A stretch of 64,000 nucleotides of DNA from NCBI GenBank assembly GCA_010093815.1, contig ML996568.1. One strand, given 5' to 3'. The notes beneath the pieces were generated by a model. The model did no database searches. It worked only from the letters and a program-made list of their open reading frames with translations, and had not been told where the DNA came from. How positions within the stretch are numbered: the stretch's first letter is position 1; every line of letters starts with the position of its first letter. Below, piece by piece: positions 1-38,286 of this stretch. The position numbers were made by a program, and so were the translations under genes. The stretch comes from Pseudovirgaria hyperparasitica. Taxonomy: Eukaryota.

Positions 1-1
1 A

Positions 2-3542: not shown

Positions 3543-3544
3543 TA

Positions 3545-5308: not shown

Positions 5309-5339
5309 TTATTAGTTAAGGGCTGCCCTTAACTAATAA
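5309..5339. repeat. 31-bp palindrome, copy 2 (LINE ORF2 stop / 3' UTR)
   Basis: ttattagttaagggctgcccttaactaataa read directly. Confidence 0.95.
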
Positions 5340-6412
5340 TCGGGGTTCTCCCGGAGTTCTTCCGGTATATATCGGGTTACTACCGGCGTATACCGGGTCT
5401 CTTCCGGTATATATTTCTAGGTCTACTAGTACTAGAGGAGTAGTAGATATATAAGTATCTATCGGGAGACGTCCTTAGGGTACTTATTAAGCTATTATAT
5501 AATATCTAAAGTCTTTATAACGTGGATAAGCTATTACTATTATATATGGAGGTTAGGGTATATAGCTAGATAGTAGCGTATTATACCTCTCCGGCCGTAC
5601 GCCTTACACCATAGGGAGGTGTTAGGAACGCCTCTCTTATGGCCTCTAGTTCAGAGTTAGATAACTTCTATAGGTTCGACGTGCCCTATACCATTAGGCC
5701 CTACTCCTGTTTTCGCCTTATCTCATCCCCTCTAGGCTTATACCTCCGGCTCTACTAGGAGAGATAACTAAAGCCTCTCCTAGCTAGGTAACTACGAGGT
5801 TTACTCCTTAAACTTATAATACTAGCGTATATACCTTATAGGCGACACGTTCTATCTCTTTATAAATCAATACGTATATCCGTTCTCTCGGGCTATATAG
5901 TAGTCTCTCTAGCTAGAATATAATCCTATCTACTTCTAGATATACTAAGGGTTAGAGCCTATTAAAGGGGTAAGGTCCTTAGAGCTAGTAGTTACTACTA
6001 TATACCACGCCCCGCCTTTAAGCATTACTACTTTTCGGTTTCGCGTTACCTATAAGAATCTCTCTATAATAGGCCGACCATATCTTATAGGAGAGTATCC
6101 TCTAAATCCCTTACGTATATACGCCTAGGCGACTTAGGTATTCTCTTTCTACTAACCCGACTTATTTCTACTACTCTTAAAGGGTCCCTATAGCTACCTC
6201 CTACCTATATCTATATACTATTATCTATATACTCTAGTATCCCACCTCCTACAGTAGACTATAACATCTCTCGTACACGGGAGCCACTCTATCTATTAGT
6301 AGTAAAGTGGTATCTCGTATCGAGCGAAAGGTCTTAATAGAGTCGTGCTACTAGTAGTCGTACTAGGCGGCTTAATAAACGTAGTTTAATACTATAGGAG
6401 AGTTAGCTTTAA

Positions 6413-6972
6413 NNNNNNNNNNNNNNNNNNNNNNNNNNNNNNNNNNNNNNNNNNNNNNNNNNNNNNNNNNNNNNNNNNNNNNNNNNNNNNNNNNNNNNNN
6501 NNNNNNNNNNNNNNNNNNNNNNNNNNNNNNNNNNNNNNNNNNNNNNNNNNNNNNNNNNNNNNNNNNNNNNNNNNNNNNNNNNNNNNNNNNNNNNNNNNNN
6601 NNNNNNNNNNNNNNNNNNNNNNNNNNNNNNNNNNNNNNNNNNNNNNNNNNNNNNNNNNNNNNNNNNNNNNNNNNNNNNNNNNNNNNNNNNNNNNNNNNNN
6701 NNNNNNNNNNNNNNNNNNNNNNNNNNNNNNNNNNNNNNNNNNNNNNNNNNNNNNNNNNNNNNNNNNNNNNNNNNNNNNNNNNNNNNNNNNNNNNNNNNNN
6801 NNNNNNNNNNNNNNNNNNNNNNNNNNNNNNNNNNNNNNNNNNNNNNNNNNNNNNNNNNNNNNNNNNNNNNNNNNNNNNNNNNNNNNNNNNNNNNNNNNNN
6901 NNNNNNNNNNNNNNNNNNNNNNNNNNNNNNNNNNNNNNNNNNNNNNNNNNNNNNNNNNNNNNNNNNNNNNNN
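6413..6972. other. Assembly gap (560 N)
   Basis: Run of N; hides the left terminus of the Plavaka element. Confidence 1.
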
Positions 6973-7129
6973 TTATTATTCTAAATTATATCTTTAGTAT
7001 ATTTAATTATAGTCTTTAAATTTAATACTAGAAAGATAGTATATAATAGAGAGTAGAGGTTAAAAATTAATTAGACTAGGAACTTAAATTAAATAGTACT
7101 ATTCTAAGCTCTCTCCGACTATATAGCTA

Positions 7130-8920
7130 CAATAAAATGTAGTAGACCTTCCTTTCTTCTACCTTTGGGCGGTGTCCTTTATCTATTAAAAGGTGTCCTT
7201 ATCTAGAACTACCTTTAATGACCTTTTCTCCCACTAGACACTTCCCTCTATATTTCTAGTTACTGTTTTTATTCTCTCTTATATTATCTATTCGGCCTCG
7301 TGGTAGTCTATATAGTTCCCTAGCTATATACTAATATCCGACTTCTCTTGAAAGTATACACTCTTTATATATAGGTTAAAGACCTAACTTGAACGTCCGC
7401 CACCATCTAACTTCATTTTGATTTAAGTATCGGTCGGGGTAGATAGACTACTAGTTAAGGTAGCTATAACTAGGGATAATAAGTTAGTAATAGACTCATT
7501 CATACTACACGTATATATACTATCATTTACCGTTCCCGCGGTTACTTAGAGCGGGTCTATACTTAATACCCAAGATGGTATAATCTTATCCGTAGCCACT
7601 ACCAGTGGTGTAGAACTCTCACCCATATCTAATGGCGTATGAGATGATTCGAGGCACTTATCCAACTAGTTTAGAGTATCCGACTCATCCTTTTCGTAGT
7701 AGTTAGTATCTATATAGCCTCTATAACTTTAGTATATACTTATATTACCCGATAGCTTAGACTCCTCGCTCTCGTCTAAGTCATCCACATCTACTTTAGA
7801 GAAGTTATCTAGGTTATCTTTATATAGGTTTATATATATAGTGTCCGGGTCGATTAGTGTTAGTGCTATAAATACTAATACTATTAGTGATTTTTAAATA
7901 TAGTCGATACGGTAGGGCGCCTAGTTCGACTATATTAGGCTTAGCGCTCGCTATTCCTCTATATAATTTAGCACGCGATTAGATAAAGGTATATATATAT
8001 ACCTAGTATTAGTAGAGAGCGTGCGAATCTACAGCGACCGAAGGACGAGTTCGGCGCCCGCCCGCTACTATATTCGTTAAGGGCATGCCTTATTATAATA
8101 TATATAATAGTAATCATGGATAGTGGGATCGGTCGGAACATACTACTATAGTGCTCCTTCGATCTAAGGAATCTTAGGGACTATAGTAGAACTAACTTTA
8201 GAGCCTTAATTACTACTAGCCCTATGAATATTTTCCGAGTTACGCTAGTATTATACTAATAATTAGTAACACGTCTAACACGACGTAAGTAATATACCTT
8301 TACTCCTATATACGCGTTATTACGTATTAGGTTACTTATACTAGCTTTTCTCTTCTCGGCTATCTCCTAGTCCTAGTATTCGGATACCATCTACCTAACT
8401 CTAGAGAGGAGTTAGTAACGGAAGTCCATTATATCTTCCTTTACTAGCGCAATAATATGGGCGGGAGGTGTGTTTTATGAATTATAATTAAGGTAGTGGC
8501 CACTAAGATTAATATCTCCGGCGGCTATCTAGGCCGATTATACTAGTATCCTAAAACTATCTAGGCTACTATCTAGCTATATATTAAGGCGATCGAATAC
8601 CGGTGGTAACCGGCCTAAAAACGTTATGGCGATCGAAATCTCTATTATTATAAGGTACCGGTCTCGTTCGTAAGGCTAGAGACTATCTCTATAGGACCGC
8701 CTCTTTTCACGGATAGTTAGTTCCCTCTCTACTACCATTTCTCTACCTTCTTCTATCGAGCTAGATAGCTAATACGGTGGAGGAGAGGACGTAAGGCCGT
8801 TATATCCCCGGTTACTATTACGGTAGGATGTTACCGTGACGTCTAAGCTATATAGGGCGTTACTACTATATTCGCTACCGGTATACCTAGACTACTAGGT
8901 TGTTAGTAGATAAACGAACG
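7130..8920 (-). pseudogene. DUF6532-like gene (RIP-mutated), boundaries approximate
   Basis: De-RIPed reverse-strand translation at ~8040-8235: IFMGPAVIKALKLVL...G......MFRPIPLSMIAIIC..MRHALDEY.SG....SF, resembling the DUF6532 consensus; acidic stretch and basic C-terminus; divergent from the transposase. Confidence 0.55.
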
Positions 8921-9540
8921 CGTCGAGATAAGCTAGATATATATATATATATTTTTTATGTCGATGGCTGTCGTGTAAGTCCCTATTATTAATACTAATA
9001 CGTATCTACGTTATATCGCATCTTCGTTTACCTATCCCGTTTAGTTTACTATGGTTACTAGATTATCTTCTATTAGTATTACCGCCACGGTAGCTAGATG
9101 GTCCCTTAACCGTCTTCCGTGTTAGAGGTCCTATAGAGAAGATATATAAGAGATTAGTAGATATTTTCATTAGTAATGGGTCGGTGACCTACTAGGCGAT
9201 AATATTAGGTAGCGGGATAATAACTAGCTAGTAGACACGATAAAGGTTTAGGCGTAGACTAATATAGTATTTTTATAGACGCGTGATGCTTACGTGTTAT
9301 TATTAATAATTTTAAGCGAGCGTGTATGGGAATCAAGGGGCTAAGAGCCGGGTAGAAGTCGGGGGTTAGTAGGTATATGTCGGGCTTTCGACGGGCTTAC
9401 ACCTAACTTCTTCTAGTATACGCCTAGAATATCCGCCGTATACCGTATTATTACTATCTACTAATGATTATACTATGGTATTTTTCCTTTATAGTAACTA
9501 CACCTCGAGATGCCACGGGCCGTAGTCTCCTACTAATACT

Positions 9541-12500
9541 ATGGTAGAAAGATTAGTAGTATATACTATATAATCCGTAGGCACTATAACTCGGAACCGT
9601 GTAGACGAGCACGGCTTGCCGCATCGCTATTATTATTATAACCATTAGGCCCGTGGCTACCACTATCGACCGGGTCACGGCGCGGCTTTAGTACTCGTAG
9701 TTATATTAGTCGATGGAACTCTTTGGTTCGCTCTATTAGTATTTAGCCGTCGAGCGTTAATTAGGAGTCCGAGCCTATGGAATTAGGTACTTCTACTACT
9801 AATATTACCCTATATAAAGATACTACTATTTTCTCTAATCCTATTTCGGACCTGGAATCTATAGACGGCGTTACTAGTAGCCATAGTACCGATTTAGTAT
9901 GTTAGTCTAATATATATAGTAGAAATGCTATATCTATGGCGACGAGGGCGTCTAGTACTATATATTTAACGAAAACGTTCGAAGAGGAGAGCGGTATATA
10001 TATTATAGTAGACTAGAGTAGACGTGATAATCCGTCCGACGTGAGTATATATAGTCTAGGTTTATAGTAGTAACTAATTTAGTAGGCCCGATTCGGTTAA
10101 TTCGATAGTAAGTTTATAGAGCGCCTTATAATATAGACGAATCGGTTCGGTATTTCGAATGTAGTATACGATGAATTAACTACTATCCTTAAATAGACTT
10201 CCGCTATACCCCCTGACCTTTTTATACTAAAATCTAATATCATACGTAAGTAGTTATTACACCACCCTAAAGGGATACCGCACGAAAGTTGGCAGCGTAG
10301 CTACGATATATTTAGCACTACTATAGTCGAATACTAGTATAGGGATCCGCTTACGTTAGTGGAATTCCTCCTTAGATACCGACCGTTCGCTAGTAAGCTC
10401 GTGTTTAAGCTAGTACGATAATTTACTAGTATAGGCGACCGGGTATATAGTAAAGCCTATATAGTAGATGGTTAGTAGGATATATATGCTACTATTCCGG
10501 ATAGTACCGTCGTTATCCCTATTATTTTATCTTCGGATAAGATAAACCTTACTAACTATGGTAGTAATAGAGTAGCATGGCTAGTCTACCTATCTATTTA
10601 TAATCTACCACTAAACGTCCGCTTATCTAGGAGTCTACCATTATTTCTACTACTTACTCTATTACTAGTAGTTAAGCTAGAAACGGTAGCGAATCGCTTT
10701 ATGTTCTATTAGGTTATAAGTAAAGTTCTAGCCCGTATATCCGCCCATGATAGAGTCGTTAACTATACTAATTATTATATAGCGTTGCAGGCTATATAGA
10801 GTACTAGAGTATTAGTATTATATGCCGATGGCGGCTCGCGTAAGTACTATCCGCGTTTAGCTTTATATATTATAGATTTTCCGGAGTAGATACTTATTAC
10901 GGGTGTATCCTATCGGTATACATGTCTAATATATATAGTCCCTAGTAATAGATGATAGTATCTACGAGAAGCCATTACTAGTGTATAGGAGTTCCGTATA
11001 TACTCGTCGTTATAGAAATAGGTTTACCGTGTACGTCACGAGTTAATAACTAATAGCTACGGTAGCGAGTATACTAGTAGTAAGATAGATAATAGGACGA
11101 GTGTACCTAGTGTCTTATCGTTTTCGTCGACGTCTTTCGCGCTAGTAGTATAGGGCCATTATATTCGCCAATCGGTTAAGAGTCGGTATTCTAGTAGGTG
11201 GATAGAGCCATTGGATAATTTCGCCTAGTTACTTACTAGAGTTAATATACACCGCGCGGTCGCTCCGGACATTCTATATTAACTATATAAGGGTATATTA
11301 GAACATACGTTTAATTAGATAGTCTTGTATATTATTAATTAAGAGCGTACGGGACATAAGTTAAAGGGTATGTTTACTAGTATACCCCCTATAGAACGAG
11401 TAAAGAAGGCGATCGATAAGCGATTCGCGTCTATTAGGGTATTCGGTTGTTATAACCTACTTACGTGTATAACTTTAGTAATATAATAGACGGGGGTGAT
11501 GTTTAAGCGTATGCTAGCAGTGTTCATGGTCACGTTTAAACCGCTCCTATATTATAATTGACACTTCCTAAGCGTAGTGCGGGCGGTTATTAATATATAT
11601 ATGTTAGCGGTATACTATACGCATGATACGTAGACACTAGTATACTTAGAAGAGGCTATATTACGCTTAGACGACCTGAAATACTAGTTTATACTATATC
11701 GTGGAGATAAATCGGAGGATAATTATTTTAACTTTCCGAAGTTCCATATATTATCGCACCTGGTCGATGCCATTAAACACCATGGTTCGTTATATCTAAT
11801 ATCGGTAGAGCTACTAGAGCGATCTCATGTCGTAGTAAAGAAATTATATCGAGGTTTAAATAAGAGGGAGACGTTTCTATAGTAGATACTAGTAGTAGAT
11901 ATACGCACGACGAATACTAAAATCTCTAGTAGTATAGAGGTGGCGGCTAGTACTAGTATATTAGTAGCCCCTAGCCTAGAGTAGCTCGATGATATACGTA
12001 AGCTAGTCGGCTAGCGGCGTATTCTAAAGAAGCCACGCCGGAGTAAATATATACTCTACGTCTTATAGAGCTATAGACTATCTACGTCCTACTAGACCAC
12101 TGTCGGCGACCTCCACGACGTGTATAGTAGTAGTTTCATGTTACTCGATACGGTTACACCCTTTATACGCAACTATTATAATCGGCTTATTAGAGATAAT
12201 ATATCGAAAGGTATAAATGTCGAATATATTAAAAAGGACCCTTCGTAGACACGGGTTCTTCCTATCTATATGTACGAGACCATGCACGTACCGATACGAC
12301 TAGATAGAGATATATCTATAGAGGCCTTTGACCCGATTCGGGTAAGGTATACCCATAACTAGTAAAAGAGTGGTAAGGCCAGGGAGGATTATATAATAGT
12401 ATAGGAGTTTAACGAGGGCAGTAACCACCTTAATAGGAAGCGGGTTAGTAAAGTCTATATATTTCTAGAGGTATACGATACGGAGAGCATTAACGTAACT

Positions 12501-12836
12501 AGTAGTATAGCGGCGCGATTCCTAGGTGCGTTAGTTAAACTACTTAATAACTTAGGTGGAGGTAATGTTAATACTATTAGTGGCCTTATACCATTACGTA
12601 TAGCGGGTTAAAGGTCTAGTAATAAGACTCGTACGATGGATAGGTTCCGTGTCTACGAGCTAGAGCATGTCCTACGCCCTATATAGATTATATCACGTTA
12701 GTTAGTTACGGATAGTTTATTCTAGTTAAACACGTATAGTAATTAGGGGATCTATAACGAGGTATATAACCTAGACTTCTAGGCTATAAATAGACGAAAC
12801 GTGACCGTAGTATTAAAACACGGGCGCGTGTCGTAA
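9541..12836 (+). pseudogene. Plavaka transposase (PF18759-like), RIP-mutated; start approximate
   Basis: De-RIPed motifs YRDPL..VEFLLGHRPF..., RVYSEA.TADGWW..., VIPIILSSDKTNLTNHGGDRVAWPVYLSI.NLP, CADG..RKCHPRLA.YIADFPEQ.LITGV...CP.C, FNFPKFH.LSH, and C-terminal LNTYSDWGIYNEVYDPDF. Confidence 0.9.
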
Positions 12837-13339
12837 GTCTATCGCTATCTACCGCCGCCTACCGTAGTATACTAGCATATGCCGGCATATGGCGGAAGTT
12901 ATGGTTTATATATAGTAGCACTCGATAGTCGTATCCTACACTAGGATATCTCTAAGGAATGATCGTGGTTTATTACGATCGGTTCTATAAAAGGCTTATA
13001 TTTAATAACTATCTATAATTTCAGCTAAGGAGCATCCAGGGATGCACCTCCTTATTACCTAATAATTACCAGCTAGCATGAAAACTCCACGCCTCTAAAA
13101 GGGGCACATAGAACTTAAAGGATCCTCGTTCACGGGTAGAACCAGACATGGATAGCATTAATCTAACACAGATAGATTATATGTATTAATACCCTAAAAT
13201 CCGAACTATGTCTCTAGGCCTACTAGACCTAGCTCGCACCCGATTCTAATGTTTTTATTATTCGCGTTTATACCTTATTAGATACCGGGCATATAACGAG
13301 TCTATGGTTAAGTAAGTATTAGGTACGTGACGAGTCTAT

Positions 13340-14250
13340 TAATGAATAAGTGCCGGGTATATAACGAGTCTATGTAAATGAGTATAAATAAGTATATGCC
13401 GGGTATATAACGCTCTTACTAGGGAAACGTCTTCCTTAAGTATCTCCCCCTCCTAATGTTTCTCCTTCTCTTCCTTTATTCTTTCCCTAGCCTTATAAGT
13501 ATAGTTAGACTTATATCGCTATATTATTAATGTATACGTTCTTATATAGACCGTTAGAAACTATAGTAACTAGATATACGTTCTCGTGATAGATAAATAT
13601 ACCGTACTAATGCGTCGCATTATTCGTGTTTAATATAAGGGTTCGCTACTATAATCATTCGTCGTTACGCTCGTCTATCTCTTCTTAACGATAGTACTAA
13701 TTAATAACGACCTATTATAGAGATGATAGTTAGCATTACGTACTTCTCTTAAATATTCATATATTAATGTTACATAAGCATATGCTTCGCGGAGGTCCTC
13801 TATCCTTCCCTCGAGCTATCTAGACCATCCCCTAATCGCTAAAAACTCTTATATCTAACTATTTCTACTATTTGTTCCTCGGTTCTACTCGTTAGGCTTC
13901 GAATGATAGCGAACCATGACGGGTTAGCAGTTATCTATATTTCGCGTACGCCGAGTTAGTATGCCTAAATATAATAGATAATAGTATGTTTATAATAGTA
14001 TATACTAGATCTCATAGTATTCCTCTTTAGCGGTAGATCCACGTGGTCGCAAAGACGGCCTACTATCCTATCGTGCCTATATACTACGCTACTCTTTTAT
14101 CGTATATAGATAGTATTACTAGAGTAGGGCTATCGCCCGGTAAACTTAACGTTATATGTGGAGTATTATATATTTAACGTCGTTATTTCACGTGCCCTAT
14201 GTTAGTACGGGATCGGATGCCGGCTATATGTTTCCCCGCCTCCATTAAAT
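13340..14250 (-). pseudogene. Unknown cargo ORF (RIP-mutated), approximate
   Basis: Long reverse frame interrupted only by RIP-type TAA/TAG, with a charged C-terminal part; no recognisable family. Confidence 0.35.
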
Positions 14251-14439
14251 TAACGAGTTATTACTAAAAACTATACGGACTACTCGCGTTAATGTAGCCG
14301 TAACGTACATGTTATATCTACGCCTATTATATAGTATATATATCTCATCTCTCTATCACCCTAGTAATATATACTATTCCCTATTCCGTCTACCTATAGC
14401 TACGTCCGGCCAGCCGCGAATAAATAGCCGAGTAGAAGC

Positions 14440-15280
14440 GAGTCTCGACCTACTTCATATATTTAGAGCGTCCGACAGGCAGAAACTTCGGGTATATATA
14501 GAAGAGTTGATTTAGGAGGAATTTACTAGCCTATTACTAAACCTACGTAGTAAGGAAGTAAAGGACCACCACATAAAACAAGAGCGTTGTCTATAGATAG
14601 TCGCGGATGAATATATATTCATTAATAGTAGTTATACTATTTCACGGGTAGATACCATATATTAACTTAATACTATATTCTTGGTATTTACGCGTAACTG
14701 GCGGCGGTTAGCTAAATACCATCATATACGTTAAAACGATGCCCCGGGCTAGACGAGCTATTATAATATTATATATACCCCACGAACCCGCCTAATATAT
14801 CTAGCTAACCTAGTTATTCGACCGTCGGACCACTAGTGTCTATATCTCCTAAGGTAGCCGTGCCGCCGTGTTATATATATATGCCTATAGTCCTTATCCG
14901 CGATCGTACTCGGGTCACCCTAGTACTAATAACGGCTATATAGAATAGCACGACGCCGTTAAATATTAAGGGTGTAAAAATACGCGATATAGTAGGTCTT
15001 AGTATAAATAAACTATTAGAATTTATTAGCTCGTCTATGGATGCACTAGGGGACGTAGGTGGTTATAGGCATAGTCGCGTCTACCTAGAGTACCCGATTC
15101 TACCGAGCGAGTCGAGTGATATAATCCTTTATAAGGATAGTTTAGACTAGGTATTATAGTAGGCTATTAAATAGGTACTAGGCTTAGGACTAGATCGGGT
15201 GGTTTTCCGCGTGGGCGATATAAATAGTATATTTAGAAGCCTACTATAACGTGTTAACTATAATCTAACCATATAGGAAC
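14440..15280 (+). pseudogene. Unknown cargo ORF (RIP-mutated), approximate
   Basis: Protein-like forward reading (overlaps ORF-track 14309-14515) with a probable intron or frameshift; no family recognised. Confidence 0.3.
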
Positions 15281-16614
15281 GTCGCGCTATGAGTATAGTA
15301 GCGGGATTTATCCGTCTAGCGCGCGTAGGTGAGCTCGAGATATATATACGCCGATAGATATCGGCATATATCGATATATTACGACTACTAAGCGGTGTAT
15401 ACCGATGTATACCGGCATATCTAGTATATACCGGTATAATGCCGTCGCTCTTCCGTGGATATAATACCATTTATATATCTTAGGTTTTCGGTTATCGGTT
15501 ACGTATAGTGTTATATACACGGCGGATACCTTACTAGATTTAGGTCTTTCGTTAATAGTATATAGGTACGCCCTAGTCCACTCGATATAGGCGTAGTTAA
15601 CGCTTTACCCACTTAAACGATAGACGTTAATAATGACGCGACTAGTATATTTACCTATTATATTATTAGCTAGCTAACGTTATATTAGGAGAGTCGAGCG
15701 CCGCCGTCCCGCCTAGTCTACCCGTTAATGTTAACATGCTAGCGATTACAACCTAATTACCTTACAAATCGACATATAATACTAGTGCGCTCGAGAGTTC
15801 GAGCGAACGTATAAAAGTCCGATATTATATACTATTTAGGGCCGGGGAGGAAGCGTCTACCGGCGTAGTGGTTATCAAGGTAATAGTAGAAGTCTATATA
15901 TAACTAGATATACTAAGTCCGCCTCCTTCTTATATAGTCCTATTACTAGATAATATTACCGGTTTCGACATTACGGGAGAGGAGTTTATAGATACGAACC
16001 CATGAATATCGGCATAACATCGGCTCGATAGTACGTATTATAGTATAAGGCAAGTTATATTTAAGCGGTAGTTAGACACGTGCGCTAGTATACTAACGGA
16101 TATATAGTATCTCTACTATGAATAGAATAGGTAAGGCATGGCTAGTAATATCTTACTATCTAGAAGAGATAGTTACCGTAGAATTTGGGAGATAGGCTCG
16201 GCGTCTATAGCGTTAGTATGTTAGACGGTTAAACTTTTATATAATACTATTTACTTATACCTATATTTACCTAAGCCCCGATTCGATAGCCTTCTATAAC
16301 GTACTATATACTCGGTCGGCGAGCTACTAGACTCATATAATAGTAGTATACTACCCCACTTTATATACTACTTAAGCTACTATTACTTTAGCCTACGTTA
16401 ATCTTAGCTTCCTTTAGTCGTCTCTATATTATAAAAGAAAACTTCTATAAATCTTTCCTCTACTTATCTTGGTTTTTAAACCTAAATCTTACCTTCTATA
16501 CTTTATTCCGTATTAATTATAACTATATACGAACGCTGCGTCGAACTCGACTCTATTAACCCTTAAGGTCTATTCTATATAATAGTTAACGAGGTCATAT
16601 TTACAGTTTATAAT

Positions 16615-19600: not shown

Positions 19601-21216
19601 GGCCATTACGCACTATCTATGAATATTACGCTTATAATAAGGATATACCTAAGGAGGAGTATAATAGGATAAACGAGCTATACCTCGCTACCTAGGACCT
19701 AGTTACTATCCACGCCTAGATTCATGTAGGGACCCTATATGTTATGAATATCGCCAAGGTAGCCCGTAATATATATCCGATTTTAGTCGTGATAGAAGAG
19801 GCTACGTGTATCCTTAAAAGTGATACACTCGGGATTATCGTTAATTATACTACTATGGAATAGTAACTAACATTTGTTTACGTCGGCGACCTACGCTAGC
19901 TCGACACCTACTAGCGTGATAGTACTAATATATAGGCCGCGAACTAGAGGATCTCCTTTATAAAGCGCTAGATATAATATAGTTTCCCGACCACTCGCCT
20001 TACCAAGTTAGAACGCTTAGTTCCTAGAATAATAAACGTTATATCGCTAATTACTTACTCGGGCGAGCTAACGACCTCGCCCTATATAATAAATAATATC
20101 GATATACCACTCGTAGAGACCGTTCGATAAATATTTGGAATCCGCGGCTATCGACACGTTATATACGCCAACGTCGACGGGGATCACGCGCACATAGTAA
20201 ATAACTTAATATATAATATAGACTTATTGCGTTTCACTTAGTAGATCATTACCGAGCTCTTCTATTATGGCGTCGCACTCGATCGCGTACTCTATATTTC
20301 TATATACACCGCCTAACGTGATCTATTTAAAGGGATAGTTAGGAACTCGCTTCTAACTATACTTGCCGCAGCGGATAAAGCTCGATTTAATACCCTACCC
20401 AAGCTAGTATAGAAGCTTGTCCAATGGCGTTTATAGGACGGTTCTTAGGGTCATAATAACGATATAGTCCTTATTAACCCGGTCTAAACTAATCGCTTCG
20501 GCTTCCTCTCGGAAGTAAACCGTAACGTCGTTACTATTACGCGCGCTAAATAGATAATAGTTATTATCGCCAACTTCATATCTCTTAAGAGGTAGAAAGT
20601 CCTAGACGGCGTACTCGGCGAGATATAGAATAAGTACTCTAAGATTTATGCGACATACACGTGCACGACCCCCGACCTAGATGGCCTCCCTCCACTCTCT
20701 AATATACCTAATCCCTAATACGGTCGCTCTATACTTAGTATTAGAGAGAGGGGAGAACGAAGCGATTAATAAACTACTAATGGTACTAAGCCCCGTAAGC
20801 CGCTAGTCTACCATAAATATAACGTCGAAGAATATAAGTCTATTAAGTGTCTAAGAGGGTCGACGCTTATATATAATAACTATTAGGACATCGACTATAA
20901 AGCTAATGTTTACCCTAAACCTAAGACGCTTACGGGTATATTTTACTATAATTATAGGACTACCGGTTATACTCGGCGTTATTATCCTAGCCGTACTAAA
21001 TTACCAGCACGCACAAATGGTAATAATCTAGTTAATGCTACTAGAGCTAATGCTACTAGAGCTAATGCCACTAGAACTAATACTACTAGAACTAATACTA
21101 CTAGAGCTAATACTACTAACGAAGTAACTACTAGCGGCTAGAACGATAGAGACTACGAGGATACCGGCCGAGACGGCGGTGTTACGACATATAAAGACAT
21201 AGAAGTCAATTAGTAA
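16615..21216 (+). pseudogene. Superfamily-1 (Upf1/DNA2/Sen1-like, AAA_11/AAA_12) helicase with N-terminal hexapeptide repeats and three C-terminal CCHC zinc knuckles
   Basis: ATG 16615, Walker A and the terminal stop share one frame (~1530 codons). Motifs: HGYGGAGKS (19018-19044), VVIEEA, VGDLRQL, SL.KR, DGSQG..NDIVLI, GFLSEVNRNVVAITRAK; C-x2-C-x4-H-x4-C three times at ~20805-20990 after de-RIP. Confidence 0.85.
16676..17040 (+). repeat. 18-bp coding minisatellite, ~20 units (de-RIP gagcctcacgttcaagcc = EPHVQA/V)
   Basis: Direct tandem array; explains the spurious reverse ORF 16570-17013. Confidence 0.95.
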
Positions 21217-22132
21217 TAGTATACGATTAGACTTACGTGTTAGGGCTACTTAGTCACGGCTTCTTAGTAAGTACACCTCTATATCCATTTTAGTTATAGT
21301 TATGACATCCTACTAGGTAGATAGTTTAGCTCTATTAAAGACCTATTAAGGGTATTTCTATTACGTCTACTCTAGTATAGACGCGCTATTAGATAATATA
21401 GCGCCACTAGGCACGTTAACTAGTACCCACCGATTAAGAAATAAACACGATTCTATATCTACCGCGAGCCCCGGCCTAATAACGTAGGCTTCCTTTAGTT
21501 ATCCCCTTCATACTTTTAAAACTACTTCTAGCCTTTATATCGGGAGATATTACTACCTAAAGAGAAAATATAAAAAAACATACGCCCTAATCAAAGCCTC
21601 CACCTTTAGACTTTAACTATAATATATACGGGATATAGTAAACCCAAATATCGCGTACTTTAAAAGCATGGAAGGATACGACACTCGAATACGACGAAAT
21701 ACAGGCTCACGATACTCGGAGAGTACCTAGGGATAAGCATATGAATATAAAATGGGATAAGACCAACGCGGCACCTCGTACATGCGTAGCCATATACCGT
21801 CCTAGACGTAGTCGCCTACGATATGACATTGCGAGATAAGAATCATAGCTATCCAATTCTATTAAGGGTATTAGATAACATAAAGTGAATAACTACACGC
21901 CCGACCACGCCACGCCAAGTCACGTGCGTGTTATAAACGCGTGTTTAAGGAACAATAAGGATACAAACAAGGTTCACCTAGTAGGTGCCTCGTTATTCCG
22001 GCTTCTACCTCTATCGTCCGACCTATACCTCCGTCTTCCTCGCGCCTATAATATACCACGCGTATACTATATAATTAGTCCGTAAATTATAAACACTATA
22101 TTAACTATATACATTAACTACATACGATTAAC

Positions 22133-23444
22133 ATGTCGAATCCGATTCTATAACAAAGTAACCGTCCGAATATAGTAATTGCCATAGCACTACTTCGCAT
22201 CTTAAGCCTAGATATATAAGTAAAGCGTAAAGCTATAGAGGCGCGTATAAGGTAGCTATATATAGAAGTATATACGGCTACTCTACTCGTAGACCATAGG
22301 TGTTAAACTAAGAATGAGCTCGGCGTAAAAAGAGCACGTAAGATTATTAATAAGGTAGCGGGCGAATTCCTAGTAGTATAGGAAAGAGTAGTAGAGTGCA
22401 TAGAGATGAAGGCGCTATACTATATCTACGACCAGGTACACACTATAGTATAGAAAACCATATATTATAGAAAAACTATCTCCGAGTATAAGAAGAGGCG
22501 CGTAATTATAGCCCTATATCCCACGACCTTATAATCCCCGCCTATTACGACCTTATAACCTCCGCCTATCGCGATCTTATAACCCCCGCCTATTACGACC
22601 TTATAGCTCTTATATACCACGACCTTATAGCCTATACTCGCAGCGGTCCCATAGCCTACTAATATACATACTACGAGAAAAATCAAATTTATAATTAGGT
22701 TTAACGACAACGTATTCCTCGAAATACTAGTATCTACGTCTAACTAGTAGAAAGACCATAGTGACGCTTCGTGTATTAATTCGATAGTATTTATACGGCG
22801 AATTAGGGTCTAATACGTAACGAAGACTAGGAGGGCACTTAACTAGAGCCGTGCTACCATACATTCTATCGTGCTAGTGGTTAAGTATATAATAAGTAAA
22901 ACGGAACTAGAGGTAGATATTAGATAGCTCCTATAGTTAGTAATCGAATATGTTCTAGAACATAGTAATAGTATAATACTCCTCGGCCTTAGATAGAATA
23001 TAGATAGTATACCCGAAGTAAAACGAAATATAAACCAGCGACTAATATATAATAGTATAGACGGCTATATATAGGTTACACTCGAATAAATCCGCCCCTC
23101 CGTCCCTAATGCCATACTCGCTATAATTAGTATAATAATAGTAATAGAAAGCTACCGCCTACGACGGTAGAGATACCTATAGAGATAGTATTATAGGTAG
23201 TAGATAGCATTACCTAAACGACTTAACCCTTCCTCTAGCGATACTATATATACTACTATCGGCACCCGGGAAGTCGCGAGACCGACCTATAAGCTCTAAA
23301 GATAGTGACTTCGAAAGCCTTAAAAGTACCTTAGATATAGAGGATATAGATATCGCTTTCGAAGACTAATAGGATAATGAAAAGGGTGCTAGAGGTAGTA
23401 AGAGTAGCGTGCGTACTTGGCTAAGGCGATGCGATCCGACGTAA
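22133..23444 (+). pseudogene. Unknown cargo ORF with 24-bp (HDLMTPAY-like) repeats
   Basis: ATG at 22133; protein-like frame with RIP-type stops; ~5 tandem 24-bp units at 22520-22630; acidic C-terminus. Start and end frames differ (intron or frameshift). Confidence 0.45.
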
Positions 23445-23770
23445 GACGGCTTCTACCTACTATATATTAGTATATACCCGATTCTACTAGCTATATAACT
23501 ATGGCGCACATGTTTGGTTAAGATATTACGATACTAGTATAAGCCGGCGTCTACCTAGTTCACGTCGGGATACGCCCGGTCCTACTAGCTACATTATTAC
23601 TACGACTATAATCGTATAAGATCCACTCTAATAATTAAACATTCACTTATATACTTTACTTCCTCCGCACTTATTAAAATTACGTTATAATCGCTAAACG
23701 CGGCGACTTAACTCCTACCGCCTAAATCTAGTTTTCATATCTTATCGCCATTAACGCCGTCTTACTATCT

Positions 23771-26700
23771 ATGGCCTAAGTCGCACATAGGAATAGATAG
23801 GCACAACGAGAGTTACGACTATCCTAGTTTAACTACCGGCCATAGAATAGCTAACCGTAACACGCATATACGACGTGCGGAGGCCTTAAGCGTTAGCGCC
23901 CTCCTACCTTATATCTAGTACCTCCGAGGCCTATACCTAATACCTAAAATAAGTTATAATATATATAGGGCTACTATTATTAAGATAGTAAGTAAAGAAG
24001 TAGTAATAGAGCTTAAAACTAGTAGTATAGATACTACTATACTCTATAGAATAGTTAAGGAAACCGTTACTAGAGAATTCAATTAGCATATCGCGGCTAT
24101 AAATAGTAAGTTAGTACCGACGGTTACGACCATAGATATAATAGAGGCTAAACTAGATATAGATACTATAGGCATAGGTACGTAGACATAGTTACCGCTA
24201 GAATATAAGGAGAAAGATAATATAGAAGATACTGAAATAGAAGACAACGTAGCTAGTATACTTAGACATATATATATATACACGGTCCTAGATACTAATA
24301 TTATCGGAGTAGTGTCGAATACAGGCGCGGTTATGACTACCGACATAGATAATCTATCTACGAATATCGTCGTGCCTAGCGAAGCTCATCCACGCGTAAA
24401 TACACTAGCCATAGAGATATAGTTATAGTTACCGCCGGAATATACGGAGAAAGAGAACGTAGAAGATACTAAAATGGAAGACGACGCAGCTAGTATACTT
24501 AGACACATATATATATATATGGTCCTAGATGCTAACATTAGAGTAGTGTCGAAGATAGGTACGGCTATAACCACCGACATAGATAATCCACCTACGAATG
24601 TCGTCGTGTCTAGTAAAGCTTATCCACGCGTAAACACACTAGCTATAGAGACATAGTTATAGTTACCGCCGGAATATATAGAGAAAGAGAACGTGGAAGA
24701 TACTAAAATGGAAGACGACGTAGCTAGTATACTTAGACACATATATATATACATGGTCCTAGATGCTAATATTAGAGTAGTATCGAAGACAGGTACGGCT
24801 ATAACTACCGACATAGATAATCTACCCACGAATATCGTCGTGCCTAGCAAAGCTCATCCACGCGTAAACATACTAGCCATAGAGATATAGTTATAGTTAC
24901 CGCCGGAACATGCGGAGAAAGAGAACGTAGAAGATACTAAAATGGAAGATAACGTAGCTAGTATACTTAGACACATATATATATATATAGTCCTAGATAC
25001 TAATATTAGAGTAGTGTCGAAGACAGGTACGGCTATAATTACTAACATAGACAATTCCCCCACGAATGCCGTCGTGCCTCTAGATACCGGCGAGACTTAT
25101 CTACGGCTACTAGAAACAAAGAGGACACTCTTAGATAATATAGTAAACCTGGTCGATTCTCCGAAACGCCTAAAACTAGAACATATTATACTACTAGATA
25201 TCGACCGGTAGACACGTGAAAACCAGGAACTGTTCGGGTTAGTAGATAATTTATATGGTAGATATATATCGGATAGTGCATTAGCGAACGGCCTTAACTT
25301 TAAAATTCTTTCTATAGACGACGACTCTAACGGAGACGAAGCAAAGCTAGATATAGAGGACTTGATTCCGGTAGATAACGATGTTAGTACGAAACTACAG
25401 GAAGCGTAAGTTATACTAAGAAGTAAGTAGGAATATACACTACCATACTAATGTACCTATAGAATATTCGCCGTTAATAACTCCGATAAAGTAGTCTAAG
25501 CTATCTCTTATTATATAGAAGAGATGCGGTCACTTACTATAAGTATGTTTAGGCTTACGCTAGACGACCTAATAAAGGAGTTCGGCCATACACCTACTCT
25601 ATATCCAGCCTTTAGTATAAGTGGGTCATATAGGCCATGGGCCGGCCAGTTACTCGCGGTAGTTACTATATGCAAGTAGCGGGCGGGTCCGTGGAAGTAC
25701 TAGATCTTAGTAGATAGCCTAGAGCTAGGGAAGATAATCGTGCTTATAATATTCATCCACCTCGCGTTTTATTAGGACTTTCTACACGATAACATAGAAC
25801 TTAATCTAGGAAATCACCTATAACCGACTTAAGACTCGGGCATGGATAGGAAGTGCCCGATATAATCTCTGCATCCGATTAAATGTCCGTGTAGCTAGAC
25901 CGATAATTTCGTCTATATGCCCCGCCTTCGAGGACCATTTATACTATACTACCTAAGGTCCCTTCTAATAGCGTATTGGCCGCAGCGCTTTAAATAGATG
26001 TATAACGATACGGATAGCATGTTCACCGATTAAATTAATAAACAGAACCCGATAAAGATAATAGTACGGCTAGCGTACTCAAAAACCCTTACCGACGCCC
26101 CTAGTATCCGATAATTCTCGTATATAGACCGATAATACTTAGCTAAGAGATGCCTACACCCCGAATAGGAATACAGCGTCGATATTAGTAATACTACTAA
26201 ATTCGAGACCGACGAGAAGTATATTATTAGGGCATGGTCGATTCCCGTTAATAGGACCGCTACCACCGAATTTCCGTCGCGATACGCGAAGAACCATATA
26301 ATCTATAGCACTATCTAGAGTGTGGAACCCTAATATCTTAAATCTTTTAAGGGATGTGTGGTTATAAGAGTAAAGAGGGCGAAATAATTTAGTACTAAAA
26401 ACACTTAAACTCGCGAAGTAGCATTCCTTAGTATATTAATAGTGGACGAGTTCTATTCCGCAAAGAACCCCGATATAAAATAGTATAAATATACGATATA
26501 TAATACCCTTATATTTAGTATATAGGTTAGTGTAACGCCCCTCTCGAATAGTCTAGTAGATATTCTAGCGGCTATTAAGGTAGGTGCTCCGGATAAGTTA
26601 CCCGACTACGTCGATAATAATACTACTAAAAGGGTATTCGAGAGCCTATAGAATAAAACTATAAGAAAGATTATTATAACGTGGTCGAATAAACTCCTTA

Positions 26701-27940
26701 GTTTAATAAAAGGTAAGTCGGCGGACATGATGGCCGCGATAGTCCGTAGGGCATTAGAAACCATAGAAGGTAAGCGTACACTACGTATGGTAGCCGATTA
26801 GTATTTACTATTCATCCTATAACGGGGACTACTAACTAAATGGTTTAACGGAGAGGCATGTCTATCCACGACATCAAAGCTAGTAGTAGAGTTTATATCC
26901 GTCCCGGCCATAGAACTAGAGAAGATAATTATATAGTTATACGAGAATAGAGGTAGATAGTTTAATAATCCATAGCCTAATAGAACGCCGCGGGACTCGT
27001 AGGTATAATCTACCGCCTAGATTAAATCGAAAGAGGGTACCGGGTCCGGGCTTAACGCATACTACCATTAGGCTAGGCTAGCTACTACGTGTGCACCACT
27101 TATATACCTTACCGATAAAAAGATAGAAGACGAGTAAATTAATATCACGCTCACGCGTCGGAGGGATAGTAATAATAGTATACCGAGTAAGATAATCGCT
27201 AATCCCGTACGCGAAGCGCTCCTATAGCTAGATAAGGCCATGCGAAAGGAGATAGTATTACTAGCTAATAAATACGCTTCGAAGGTAAACTAGATCCGTA
27301 ACTTTATTAATAATAACGTTTATAATAAAAGTACTAGACGCGCGCGACGAACATCCGCCAACTACCCGGAGAAAATCGTACTCATATATACCGTACCGGC
27401 AAGCTTAATGTTCCTATACTTAGTGAGTATTTACACTACCTACTAGTAACGTAATTCACTAACATATATAGGTACTACGTCCATATGCACAAGCGAAAAT
27501 ATTAGTATATTTACCAGCCGGCCTAAGTACGTCCGAATTAAACAAGGTATATAGATTATTTAGGTCGACCAAGTCGGATTCTCCGTATATTCTACTAGTA
27601 TTAGCTTCGTAGGTCTATGAAGGACAAGACCTAACAGTCGCCGGTTTTATAGTATTAGTAGACTAATGCTTACGTAAGGAGACGTGGCCGTAGGTAAGTA
27701 TAAGATATTATCGCCATAGATAATATCGGCCTATAGTATATACGTATACTTTGATTTTAGACTATTTAGAGGTCGAGGCTAGACTCGCCGCGTTAGGCAA
27801 GGTAATCGAAAGCACGAGAATATAAGCCTTAGACCTAGGAAAAGGAGATATAGCTACGGTAGAGATAGCCACACCTAATATACTAGTAATAGGCGTACGC
27901 TTTAATCCTATAGAGATATAGTAGTATAGAAGTAAGTAAG
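23771..27940 (+). pseudogene. SNF2-family (SF2) ATPase with N-terminal 78-aa repeats, RIP-mutated, intron-containing
   Basis: De-RIPed motif I ILADG..GKT (~25705-25735), motif II LIVDEFH.AKN (~26435), motif III SATPLSN (~26540), helicase-C EKIVL..., EGQDLTVA...LVD..., R.HR.GQ.R. GT..AG introns with branch sites at ~25405-25461 and ~27424-27471. Confidence 0.8.
24170..25080 (+). repeat. 234-bp tandem repeat, ~4 units, in frame
   Basis: Anchor gttaccgc recurs at 24191, 24428, 24662 and 24896 (spacing 237, 234, 234). Confidence 0.95.
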
Positions 27941-28069
27941 GTAGTCGGTTAATTAGCTTCTAAGAGACTAGATAGCATGGTAGTATAAATACGAACCGCT
28001 GTTTACTCGTGATAACATGTCTATATATATCTATACATAAAGAGAAATAAGATATTTATTCTATACCAT

Positions 28070-28600
28070 TATATAGTAGGACGTTACTATATATACCGGC
28101 ATACAACGGAATATTCCGACATACGCCGGTATATTATAGGATATTCCTAGATACTCGAAGTATAGTCGTAGTATAAAGTAGCATTACTATTATATGCCGG
28201 CATATAGTAGAACGTTACTACATATGCCGGTATACAACGGGATCATGTTCTAATATACTATACGCCGCTAGTATATTATAGAATATTCCTAGATACTTGA
28301 AGTATAGTCGTAATATAAAGTAGTATCGCTATACTATGCCGGCATTTAGTAGGACGTTACTATATATACCGGCATATAATAGGATTAAACGTTTTCTTAA
28401 CGTTCGATAGAACGATTCTAAAAGAACCGGGATAGCTCTAGGAGAACTAGAACGACTCCGGGAGGACTAGGACGACTCTAGGAGGATTAGGATAACTCTA
28501 GAAGTACCGGGACGACTCTAGGAGGATTGGGACAACTCTAGAAGTACCGGGACCCATTTGGGATAACTTTAGAAGTACCGGGAGACCTAGAAGCATTGGG
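28070..28600. repeat. Subterminal tandem repeats of the Plavaka element (~130-140-bp units x2-3, then ~20-bp units x~9)
   Basis: Repeated gtaggacgttactatatataccggcata at 28070-28380, then gacgactctaggagga / ctagaagtaccgg-type units at 28420-28600. Confidence 0.85.
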
Positions 28601-29362
28601 AGCGCCGTATCTTTCCTAATGTTCCTAGAGCCGTTTAAGCCTTAAGGTATCCTATCGCGCTACTAGGACCTCCGCTTCCTCTACCTAGTTAGTAAGATAG
28701 ATTTAGGCCTGCTTTTAACATAGTAGTAGCGCGTTAGGTGGTTTTCTTATCCCTTTATCCTCGTGAACTTCTCTTAACGCGTTAATTAGGGATAGAATAG
28801 AAGTATATACTTCCCTAGCTAGGTTATGTTAGCGTGGTTTAGTAAGGTAGACGCTCCACGAAAACTCTTTAACTATCTATCTAGCGACGACTAGGTCGCC
28901 ATTAACGCCGCTCCGAACCTCTTACTACCTCTATAGAGGCATTGCCTAGCTACGACGACGTGGACGCGGTTCGTAAGGCTTCGTAGCCGTTACTATAAGT
29001 ATAGAGAAATAGAATATATTTCGTCTAACTATAAGAATCCGAAAAAAGAATAGACTAGTATATGAGACCTAACTATATCCTTAGCTAAATTATATATACT
29101 TAGGAGGAGCCGTAGCGCCTTCCGGCGAGTAAAGATCTAATATTACTAAAAGTATTATTATCTATAGTAAATAGTAATAAAACTATATAGGCCCTCGTAG
29201 ATACTAGTATAGAAGATAACTATATTTTATCGATTCTCGTAAAGGAGTATAGATTATCGTATAATCTCGGTAAAGTTAGCCGAACTATCGTAGTTAATAG
29301 ATATAAAGTTAGAACTTTAGGTAAAGCTATAACGAATTACGAAGTTTATAACTCGAAGATAA

Positions 29363-29964
29363 TATAAGGAGGCGGGCTCTACGTACCAACCAACTATACC
29401 AAAAGGACCGAATCTTAAAGCTACTACTTCAAGGGTGGAGTACACTACTTATATACGACTACTATATACATGTATAATTAACTAGCAGGTACGTGTCTAA
29501 TAATATCTCCCCTTTTCGAAGGCGCGTACCCTTACGTGTTGTAGGCATCTACCTTACGAAAGATAAACTAAACTAGCTATAATAGGCCTAGTATACGCGC
29601 TAGCCACACTAGGCCTAGTATAAACCATATATACATAATTAATATTCGTAATACCGCCTCTAGTACTAGATACGCTAACTTACCGTAGTAACGTTACTAC
29701 TATATTATCCGTTACATATATAAAGTACACGTAACGTAGTAAGCTAAACGGAATCGTACGAAATTTAATAACGGTTAACTAGACCGAGATTTAAACCTAT
29801 AACCCTATAGTAGCTTTAAGATTATATAAGGAGGCGGGCTCTATATACTAACTAACTATACTAAAAGGACTAAATCTTAAAGCTACTACTTTAAGGGTGG
29901 AGTATACTACTTATATACGACTACTATATACATATATAATTAACTAGCAGGCACTTACCTAACA
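29363..29964 (-). mobile_element. TRIM (terminal-repeat retrotransposon in miniature) inserted in the Gypsy A protease region
   Basis: 140-bp direct LTRs at 29363-29502 and 29825-29964; ~320-bp non-coding interior; reverse PPT tctcccctttt beside the left LTR; 4-bp TSD ataa; removing it restores the protease frame (…ILG.PWL). Confidence 0.9.

Positions 29965-38274: not shown

Positions 38275-38286
<12 letters not shown>

Follow-up and report, generated by a model that had tools for sequence, protein, structure and literature searches.

How far a single DNA transposon extends, and which of the genes found within it are its own, is the question raised by a block at 6973-28621 in a 64,000-nucleotide stretch of Pseudovirgaria hyperparasitica DNA (GenBank assembly GCA_010093815.1, contig ML996568.1; the whole of this stretch is hereafter the window). 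A preliminary description, made from the sequence alone, had proposed a giant Plavaka/CACTA-type transposon carrying its own helicase and SNF2 ATPase. At a probability of roughly 0.6, the block is read here as a RIP-inactivated copy of a high-copy, PlavakaB-lineage cut-and-paste transposon (CMCT/EnSpm-like clade) of at least 21.6 kb, which lies inside a non-LTR-type retroelement and carries helicase and probable SNF2 accessory genes. Self-comparison of the window shows it to be a nest of repeats.

The interrupted host and its empty site

The block is a single insertion that interrupts a non-LTR-type retroelement (host copy 1). The empty site is known because an uninterrupted host paralog, present at 35353-36562 in the same window, matches both halves: self-comparison aligns 5638-6412 with 36562-35788 (minus strand) at 96.9% identity and 28613-29006 with 35746-35353 (minus strand) at 93.7%.

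5056-5070, no strand: left 15-bp host target-site duplication (TSD), GTTACTATAAGTATA, identical to 28989-29003
5071-6412, plus strand: left half of the host non-LTR-like retroelement, starting with (TAA)n, 95-97% identical to 38275-37703 and 36562-35788 (both minus strand)
6413-6972, no strand: run of N, a scaffold gap, recorded as 560 N
6973-28621, plus strand: visible part of the proposed giant Plavaka-type element, 21,649 bp, from domains, self-comparison, contig cover and terminus
28622-28988, plus strand: right host half, differing from 35737-35371 by transitions only
28989-29003, no strand: right 15-bp host TSD, identical to 5056-5070

The left host half differs from the paralog by 23 transitions and one transversion, and 28622-28989 from the host copy by no transversions. 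Host copy 2 is likewise flanked by a 15-bp repeat, though of another sequence; since host copy 1 has matching 15-bp TSDs and host copy 2 a different repeat, the scaffold join over the N gap is sound. In its behaviour the host resembles a non-LTR retroelement, and Pfam searches found no RT domain on either strand of 1-6411 or on the minus strand of 28600-35800. Position 6973 is the edge of the N gap and no element end, so the start placed there by the preliminary description falls away, whereas its view of the block as a unit between the halves of one TSD-flanked retroelement is borne out by the empty-site paralog and the identical repeats. The gap should hold some 53 bp of host sequence together with the left element terminus, and one contig from the public run X2 extends 108 nt leftwards of 6973.

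The right terminus

28057-28553, plus strand: subterminal direct repeats, a pair of ~131 bp at 28057-28385 and 20/40-bp units at 28436-28553
28612-28621, minus strand: candidate 3′ terminus of PlavakaB type, the last 10 bases before 28622 reading CATTAGGAAA on the minus strand

Bases 28617-28621 read TAATG, one G>A transition (in TpG context) from TGATG. For PlavakaB, the available part of PMC12730594 gives a main-text terminus consensus of CATCA..TGATG and, in its supplement, the 5′ ends CATCAGCAAA, CATCTGGAAA, and CATCGGGGCA; the reverse-complemented right end equals these published termini after one RIP-type transition. The decamer pattern CATYDGSMAA, derived from the published termini, occurs three times in the 64 kb, where 0.52 occurrences would be expected, and one of the three lies exactly at the host junction. 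The subterminal repeats and the terminus at 28621 reported earlier stand, but the terminus is CATTA/CATCA-like and not CACTA-like, with PlavakaB ends giving the better fit. The right flank starts with TTC where the empty site reads TTT, and the first two to three bases of the right host half probably represent the TSD of the Plavaka element.

A junction at 28612/28613, the first BLAST reading, was demoted, since the transversion count and the terminus comparison favour 28621/28622. Positions 28613-28621 agree with the uninterrupted host copy at 7/9 positions, and thus the junction could lie at 28612/28613, in which case the terminus match would be a coincidence. Within the visible window, the terminal 16-, 24-, and 40-mers do not recur above shuffle maxima in either orientation. 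Transition-tolerant local alignment of the left kb to the reverse complement of the right kb scores 324 against a shuffle maximum of 321; a TIR is therefore not detectable in the visible sequence.

RIP and copy number

The block has a TA/AT index of 1.57 and a (CA+TG)/(AC+GT) index of 0.35, compared with 0.71 and 1.25 at 52-64 kb, and both are even along its whole length. In the public runs X1 and X2 it is represented by tens of diverged copies: at ≥80% identity, 15,824 (X1) and 8,248 (X2) short contigs match 6973-26972, with differences from the block that are nearly all transitions. The block is thus both RIPed and multicopy, as had been proposed. Summed over thirty 667-bp bins, contig depth ranges from 14.1k to 37.6k in X1 and from 7.5k to 14.4k in X2—contig depth being neither a copy number nor fit for ranking parts of the block—and peaks in the bin that contains an internal tandem repeat; exact-match contig depth is ~320 (X1) and ~217 (X2). 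Purine/pyrimidine-collapsed BLAST for diverged copies was uninformative, yielding 204-268 matches in shuffled controls. All genes of the present copy are dead, with 52-83 stop codons per ORF (per-frame stop density being a weak discriminator), and functional tests hence need copies that are less decayed, taken from this genome or from related ones.

For a fungal DNA transposon, the size and the presence of several genes are unusual, and a left end hidden in the gap means that a further gene, such as one for a tyrosine recombinase, could sit there. The block might then be part of some larger region, mobile in a Starship-like way or segmentally duplicated, in which a dead Plavaka copy happens to lie. 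This is very improbable: the gap is recorded as 560 N, the host TSDs place the interruption within a single small retroelement, and the PlavakaB-type right border is flush with host sequence. Six-frame Pfam searches of 6974-28700 at E ≤0.01 found no tyrosine recombinase (DUF3435) or other mobility domain, in agreement with the preliminary description. Starships of Pezizomycotina are likewise large multi-gene mobile elements in RIP-competent fungi; however, they are low-copy, whereas the present element has tens of diverged copies and a DDE transposase, and is an order of magnitude smaller.

The transposase and its divergent partner

8040-8471, minus strand: DUF6532 domain of a divergent second gene (Pfam PF20149, E 1.5e-7, 32 bits against a cut-off of 24)
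10314-11864, plus strand: Plavaka transposase core; likely ORF ~9375-12600, 52 stops

Both genes had been named in the preliminary description, and both are recovered by profile. PF18759 matches 10314-10947 at E 6e-27, scoring 95.1 bits where Pfam requires 26.3 and aligning over profile positions 40-247 of 325, and stands alone in the plus frames of 6974-14500, where Transposase_21/Tnp2 has no Pfam match at E ≤0.01. Four intact transposase homologs (P0001-P0004) show 27-33% identity, and tblastn places residues 228-660 of P0001 on 10326-11864 in a single frame (E 2.5e-21, 524 columns). The ORF contains 52 stops in ~1075 codons and many residues altered by RIP; word-indexed protein search gave homologs only with the query restricted to residues 105-335, and an 800-residue stretch of the transposase gave no match.

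Among 80 metagenomic Plavaka loci, of which 35 include ≥2 kb of upstream sequence, 11 have a DUF6532-transposase pair, with the DUF6532 ORF on the minus strand, upstream of a plus-strand transposase, and with 8 of the 11 ORFs above the Pfam cut-off. When 10 of these ORFs were compared with the window by tblastn (the eleventh, L051, being omitted as an apparent duplicate of L050), none matched significantly, the best in-place match having E 0.64. On the model of TnpA in En/Spm, the DUF6532 protein probably serves the element as a second, DNA-binding or accessory protein. DUF6532 thereby emerges as the regular divergent partner gene of Plavaka transposases, which supplies a functional setting for a domain of so far unknown function.

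The helicase gene

16615-21130, plus strand: UPF1/ZNFX1-like SF1 helicase ORF; ATG start, one frame, ~1505 codons, 83 stops
16676-17044, plus strand: 18-bp tandem repeat, 20.5 copies, encoding the N-terminal (EPYVQ[AV])n hexapeptide repeat of the helicase ORF
19990-20575, plus strand: AAA_12 domain (SF1 helicase C-terminal), Pfam E 8.1e-10, 39 bits against a cut-off of 27
20809-20985, plus strand: three RIP-degraded CCHC zinc knuckles, at 20809, 20872, and 20944, pattern [CY]x2[CY]x4[HY]x4[CY]

The helicase with its zinc knuckles is real, and the Upf1-like gene with three knuckles described earlier is thereby confirmed. AAA_12 recurs in a separate Pfam scan of the helicase region (E 4.7e-9); the best PDB matches are ZNFX1 (E 4.3e-4) and Upf1/NAM7 (E 0.012-0.025), with SEN1 at E 0.09, and a Walker-A-like (P-loop-like) string, GGARKS, lies at 19027, alongside a weak Pfam match to a PIF1 P-loop (E 0.15) that was taken as spurious. 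The knuckle pattern occurs three times in one frame within 60 codons, against 19 occurrences in 101,996 six-frame codons of RIPed sequence (51 kb). AAA_11, the N-terminal helicase domain, has no Pfam match in the ORF even at E up to 10, and word-indexed protein search with the RIPed helicase gave no match.

The third long frame

23775-27700, plus strand: third long low-stop frame, 1308 codons, 52 stops; four 78-residue repeats, then an SNF2-like region
24188-25079, plus strand: 234-bp tandem repeat, 3.8 copies, in frame with the third ORF
25704-25739, plus strand: candidate SNF2 motif I, ILVDSLELGKII, read from the translation and RIP-consistent with xxADxxGLGKT
26427-26597, plus strand: candidate SNF2 motifs II-III; the sole PDB matches are three CHD1L chains, E 0.35

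The third ORF possibly carries an SNF2-type ATPase, every score lying below threshold. Its candidate motifs occur in the correct order, motif I being compared with xxADxxGLGKT, which we take to be the consensus. In Pfam, the best SNF2-rel_dom match reaches 11.4 bits (E 0.17, one 200-residue tile) against a cut-off of 24.9. Whole-frame Pfam scans gave neither SNF2 nor Helicase_C, tiles spanning 26475-27899 gave no Helicase_C match at E up to 10, and exhaustive phmmer of the SNF2-like frame gave 0 hits among 1.84 billion representatives. The intron-containing SNF2 ATPase of the preliminary description is hence reduced to a sub-threshold candidate, whose visible motifs need no intron, and the 'about three orphan ORFs' listed beside it could not be delimited. 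Of the profiles it had named, PF18759, DUF6532, and AAA_12 found matches above threshold, SNF2_N scored below threshold, and AAA_11 and Helicase_C gave no match. An AAA_33 match (E 6.7e-4), lying in another frame inside the 234-bp repeat, was judged spurious, as were weak Pfam matches to LPP20 (E 0.0088) and Mst1_SARAH (E 0.13).

One element or several

A single large Plavaka-lineage transposon is favoured because the empty-site paralog, the host TSDs, and a PlavakaB-type 3′ terminus at the point where host homology resumes all frame the same block, and because no second terminus is found inside it and multicopy cover is roughly even over 20 kb. Its Plavaka lineage and giant size, as first proposed, thus hold up; that the helicase and SNF2-like genes are its cargo, as opposed to older nested insertions, is what we infer.

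Alternatively, a normal Plavaka of ~9-10 kb, with only the DUF6532 and transposase genes, may have been interrupted or extended by unrelated repeats bearing the helicase gene and the ORF at 23.8-27.7 kb, possibly co-amplified later. Published lengths would suit such a nest: the two fungal PlavakaA consensus sequences given in the available part of the PMC12730594 supplement have inferred lengths of ~8.7-9.5 kb, in contrast to at least 21.6 kb here. The window is, moreover, demonstrably a repeat nest, and a single contig per run joins 19569 to 20866. At 38391-39094 (minus strand) there is also a separate, diverged paralog of the 5′ end of the helicase gene, and in the sequence upstream of it no similarity to the block can be detected; the gene may hence occur in other contexts as well.

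None of the 80 other Plavaka transposase loci was seen with a helicase or SNF2 gene beside it: AAA_11, AAA_12, and SNF2_N were absent from all 114 flanking ORFs scanned (of 188 ORFs ≥130 aa), most of these metagenomic contigs being short and from distant basidiomycete-like relatives. Searched by tblastn with the degraded frames of the window itself (helicase, SNF2-like, DUF6532, and orphan), the same loci gave no match at E ≤0.1.

A nest is nonetheless considered unlikely. RIP is uniform across the block, and all three long ORFs lie on one strand. From the DUF6532 gene through the start of the third ORF, depth (which is not copy number) is even within ~1.7-fold outside the tandem-repeat bins, and self-comparison reveals neither a recurrence of the terminal sequence within the block nor any further repeat boundary inside it. 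Nesting that preceded amplification would, furthermore, in effect be a cargo-bearing element.

Were the block one transposon, its core would be the conserved Plavaka module, a plus-strand DDE transposase and a minus-strand divergent DUF6532 protein, extended by ~16 kb of extra same-strand sequence that places the helicase gene and a second long ORF between the transposase and the 3′ terminus. Mobility would follow from cutting by the transposase at CATCA..TGATG-type termini with their subterminal repeats, and the helicase and ATPase could be lineage-specific accessories that act on nucleic acid or chromatin, for transposition or against silencing; an anti-silencing role is speculation. A fuller, and doubtful, version is that a PlavakaB lineage in a RIP-competent ascomycete more than doubled in size, gaining and keeping its own UPF1/ZNFX1-like zinc-knuckle helicase and an SNF2-type remodeller, both with repeat-rich N-termini, and that the pair acts on element chromatin or small-RNA pathways, thereby favouring transposition or escape from silencing. 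This would make it the first DNA transposon known with such a pair.

Relation to known elements

The nearest relatives appear to be the PlavakaB elements of Agaricomycetes (Kojima 2025, PMC12730594; CMCT clade), which, in the available part of that paper, share the PF18759 transposase, the TGATG 3′ end (here after one G>A transition), and a similar terminal decamer; a divergent DUF6532 gene upstream of the transposase is seen here and in the 11 metagenomic loci. In contrast to these, the present element adds the helicase-zinc-knuckle and SNF2-like ORFs and resides in a genome that uses RIP, Pezizomycotina-like. Maize En/Spm (CACTA) is likewise a cut-and-paste DDE system with two core proteins, subterminal repeat arrays, and CA..TG-type ends, but the present element has no Transposase_21/Tnp2 match, a CATTA/CATCA-like end, a much larger size, and extra genes.

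Accessory genes that plausibly act on host silencing are found in the TET/JBP-carrying KDZ and Plavaka elements of basidiomycetes, according to the available part of PMC12730594; the accessory genes here come from other families, their anti-silencing role being hypothetical, and no TET/JBP domain was detected in the element. If the helicase and SNF2-like genes are true cargo, the range of accessory genes known from DNA transposons—among them those for TET/JBP dioxygenases in fungal KDZ/Plavaka (PMC12730594) and for methylase/SET and ParB-2OG proteins in red-algal Plavaka (bioRxiv 10.1101/2025.02.11.637652), in the parts of these sources available—would extend to nucleic-acid and chromatin motor proteins, giving a testable case of how large cut-and-paste elements cope with host silencing.

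Giant gene-rich Plavaka elements are not in themselves new, and the novelty suggested in the preliminary description, which knew of no account of this gene set, is overstated. EnSpm/Plavaka elements of 16-20 kb with 4-5 ORFs are on record for the red alga Chondrus (cited in PMC6431247), and Plavaka/EnSpm elements of 17.4-19.1 kb for the red alga Bostrychia (bioRxiv 10.1101/2025.02.11.637652), as far as the available parts of these sources go. As described there, the red-algal giants of ~20 kb similarly combine a transposase with several accessory genes, internal tandem repeats, and very high copy number; their accessory genes encode a DNA methylase and SET protein, a ParB-like/2OG-oxygenase protein, and an unknown protein, whereas the present element, in another host kingdom, has DUF6532, a CCHC-knuckle SF1 helicase, and perhaps an SNF2 ATPase.

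Insertion of the block into a retroelement copy

The favoured reading of the block at 6973–28621, with a probability of about 0.6, is a single inactivated copy of a giant PlavakaB-type transposon. It is an insertion into a single copy of a non-LTR-like host repeat, and the features that define this insertion are as follows.

5071–6412 and 28622–28988: host-repeat copy 1, non-LTR-like, interrupted by the block
6413–6972: run of Ns
35353–38275, minus strand: host-repeat copy 2, non-LTR-like
40554–42263, plus strand: host-repeat copy 3, non-LTR-like

On comparison of the window with itself, 5638–6412 matches 36562–35788 (minus strand) at 96.9% identity and 28613–29006 matches 35746–35353 at 93.7%; the window therefore also contains a paralog without the interruption, the empty site. 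Identical 15-bp direct repeats (5056–5070 and 28989–29003) bracket the interrupted copy, the paralog is bracketed by another, different 15-bp repeat, and both begin with (TAA)n. Target-primed reverse transcription leaves long, variable target duplications; since the 15-bp duplications fit this pattern, the preliminary description was reasonable in calling the host a retroelement flanked by target-site duplications (TSDs), and the host presumably mobilised by this route. A domain scan found no RT domain in 1–6411 (both strands) or 28600–35800 (minus strand). The identity of the host TSDs on either side shows that the scaffold join over the N gap is correct. Such 15-bp TSDs are known for two of the three host-repeat copies, and approximately 1.14 kb (36563–37702) present in copies 2 and 3 is absent from copy 1.

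Repeat DNA degraded by RIP (TA/AT 1.3–1.9; (CA+TG)/(AC+GT) 0.07–0.65) fills the window's first 51 kb, and a single ORF of at least 100 codons survives in 1–35000. From around 52 kb onwards the sequence is normal (0.6–0.8 and 1.1–1.3, respectively), with an abrupt switch at ~51000–52000 from the AT-rich compartment (GC 0.27–0.42) to GC-normal DNA (GC 0.45–0.56). At the extreme edge of the RIPed compartment, 50987–51058 (minus strand) matches 21334–21405 of the block over 72 bp at 79% identity.

Termini of the block

The initial BLAST junction fell at 28612/28613. Nearly all differences between the host copies are transitions (23 transitions and one transversion in the left half); 28622–28989 contains zero transversions, and 28618 is a transversion. 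PlavakaB elements are reported to have termini 5′-CATCA..TGATG-3′ and TSDs of 2–3 bp (Kojima, PMC12730594), and 5′ ends given in the supplement to that paper include CATCAGCAAA, CATCTGGAAA, and CATCGGGGCA. On the minus strand, the decamer at 28612–28621 is CATTAGGAAA. A terminal pattern built on these three published ends, with C>T permitted at position 4, has three matches in 64 kb against 0.52 expected, one of them precisely at 28612–28621. Because the host shows transitions only from 28622 and a PlavakaB-like decamer occupies 28612–28621, 28621 is accepted as the block end, where it had originally been placed, and the TTC that follows (TTT in the empty site) is the probable TSD of the insertion. 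The junction at 28612/28613 is a minority reading, kept alive by the resemblance of 28613–28621 to the empty site at 7/9 positions. The other two matches (55569–55578, minus strand, and 58726–58735, plus strand), both in the non-RIPed, GC-normal part, are probably chance: their order and orientation are incompatible with one element, and tblastn found no Plavaka transposase in the non-RIPed part around them.

The left terminus must lie within the N gap. In the visible window, neither an inverted nor a direct repeat of the terminal 16-, 24-, or 40-mer scored above shuffle maxima, and a transition-tolerant alignment of the two block ends scored at shuffle level. Two runs, X1 and X2, match the block; both derive from one sample of one study, possibly the assembly source. 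A 251-nt X2 contig at ~16x the usual depth matches 6973–7115 exactly and extends 108 nt into the N gap, so the read data contain the element's missing left part. Just inside the 3′ terminus, at 28600–28612, lies a GC-rich 13-mer, GGAGCGCC[GT]TATC, which recurs at 38909–38921 (minus strand), directly upstream of the ATG of a helicase-gene fragment, perhaps by chance or as a binding or promoter motif common to both places.

Conserved core and other Plavaka loci

Genes were sought in all six frames, with stops read as X.

8040–8471, minus strand: DUF6532 (PF20149), Pfam E 1.5e-7
10314–10947, plus strand: Plavaka transposase (PF18759), Pfam E 6e-27

Four intact homologs of the transposase (Bondarzewia, two from Thelephora, and one ENA record) share 27–33% identity with it, the best giving a single-frame alignment over 10326–11864 (E 2.5e-21). 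Scanning metagenome contigs with an alignment of the four proteins yielded 80 loci totalling 492 kb, with 188 stop-free ORFs of at least 130 aa lying >600 bp off the transposase match; 114 were examined once overlapping ones were dropped. DUF6532 was detected at E ≤0.001 in 11 ORFs from 11 loci (8/11 exceeding the Pfam cut-off), which are not all independent, L050 and L051 being seeming duplicates and L021 and L022 very similar. All 11 are on the minus strand, upstream of a plus-strand transposase, as in the window; at least 2 kb of upstream sequence was available in 35 of the 80 loci. The conserved Plavaka core is thus DUF6532 plus transposase.

AAA_11, AAA_12, and SNF2_N were found in none of the 114 flanking ORFs, and the window's degraded accessory frames (helicase, SNF2-like, DUF6532, and orphan translations) matched none of the 80 loci; the helicase and third ORF are therefore not general among Plavaka. 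The main rival to a single giant transposon, that the block is a nest or composite, is possible but rather unlikely. That both genes would be the giant transposon's own accessory genes is an attractive inference. Published elements include giant Plavaka elements of 17.4–19.1 kb with three accessory genes in Bostrychia, a red alga (bioRxiv 10.1101/2025.02.11.637652), EnSpm families of 16–20 kb in Chondrus with 4–5 ORFs (PMC6431247), and Plavaka elements of Agaricomycetes carrying TET/JBP (PMC12730594). Within the literature covered on Plavaka, DUF6532, and EnSpm/CACTA/Kyakuja/Zisupton (which also included PMC5751038, PMC7473861, PMC8955403, and PMC10799480), neither an SF1 helicase nor an SNF2 gene was found described for a Plavaka or EnSpm element, nor was such an element in a RIP-affected genome.

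Copies of the block

Short contigs at ≥80% identity were compared with 6973–26972 only, giving 15,824 from X1 and 8,248 from X2. Those from X1 comprise 5054 at ≥99% identity, 4754 at 95–99%, 4643 at 90–95%, and 1373 below 90%, and their differences are overwhelmingly transitions (478 C>T, 429 G>A, 151 A>G, and 139 T>C; each transversion ≤3). Summed depth per 667-bp bin is 14.1k–37.6k (X1) and 7.5k–14.4k (X2), peaking in tandem-repeat bins, and exact-match contigs have a depth of ~320 (X1) and ~217 (X2); contig depth is not copy number and is unsuitable for ranking parts. The depths weakly indicate that each part of the block's first 20 kb occurs in tens of copies, with comparable abundance throughout.

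Helicase gene

16615 (ATG): start of the helicase frame, ~1505 codons, 83 stops
16676–17044: 18-bp tandem repeat encoding the helicase N-terminal (EPYVQ[AV])n
19990–20575: AAA_12, E 4.7e-9 to 8e-10

The closest solved structures are ZNFX1 (E 4.3e-4), Upf1/NAM7 (0.012–0.025), and Sen1 (0.09); Pfam scans did not detect AAA_11 in this frame. Right behind the helicase core, three matches to [CY]x2[CY]x4[HY]x4[CY]—the CCHC knuckle as RIP alters it, with Cys and His changed to Tyr—fall inside a 60-codon stretch, against a background of 19 matches in 101,996 six-frame codons of the entire RIPed 51 kb. The AAA_12 match and this cluster together uphold the proposed helicase with three zinc knuckles. 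Behind the knuckles, tandem repeats at 21033–21134 (15/30-bp units) encode an (NATRA)n-like tail, and further repeats (22506–22629, 24/48-bp units) lie inside the 21.2–23.7 kb stretch. In each run, one contig connects 19569 directly with 20866 and so omits 1296 bases, pointing to a deletion inside the helicase core of one or more copies of the family.

A diverged paralog of the helicase 5′ end (~61–75% identity) lies at 38391–39094 (minus strand), within 2.3 kb of sequence flanked by inverted host copies (35353–38275, minus; 40554–42263, plus). It has an ATG of its own and is open in the N-terminal frame; the hexapeptide-repeat expansion is absent.

Third ORF

~23775–27700: third low-stop frame, 1308 codons, 52 stops
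24188–25079: 234-bp array, corresponding to four 78-residue repeats of the third ORF

Whole-frame Pfam scans assigned this ORF to no family, and it had zero matches among 1.84 billion representatives. SNF2-rel_dom was the sole family on one 200-residue tile (E 0.17; 11.4 bits, cut-off 24.9), PDB matches at E ≤10 numbered just three, all of them CHD1L (E 0.35), and no Helicase_C lobe was found in the ORF. It contains, in succession, ILVDSLELGKII (25704–25739) and then LIVDEFYSAKNP and VTPLSNSLVD (26427–26597), which resemble SNF2 motifs I, II, and III if the changes A>V, G>E, T>I, and H>Y are permitted. Objectively, the SNF2 ATPase of the preliminary description is weakly supported; an SNF2 origin of the third ORF is probable, if unproven.
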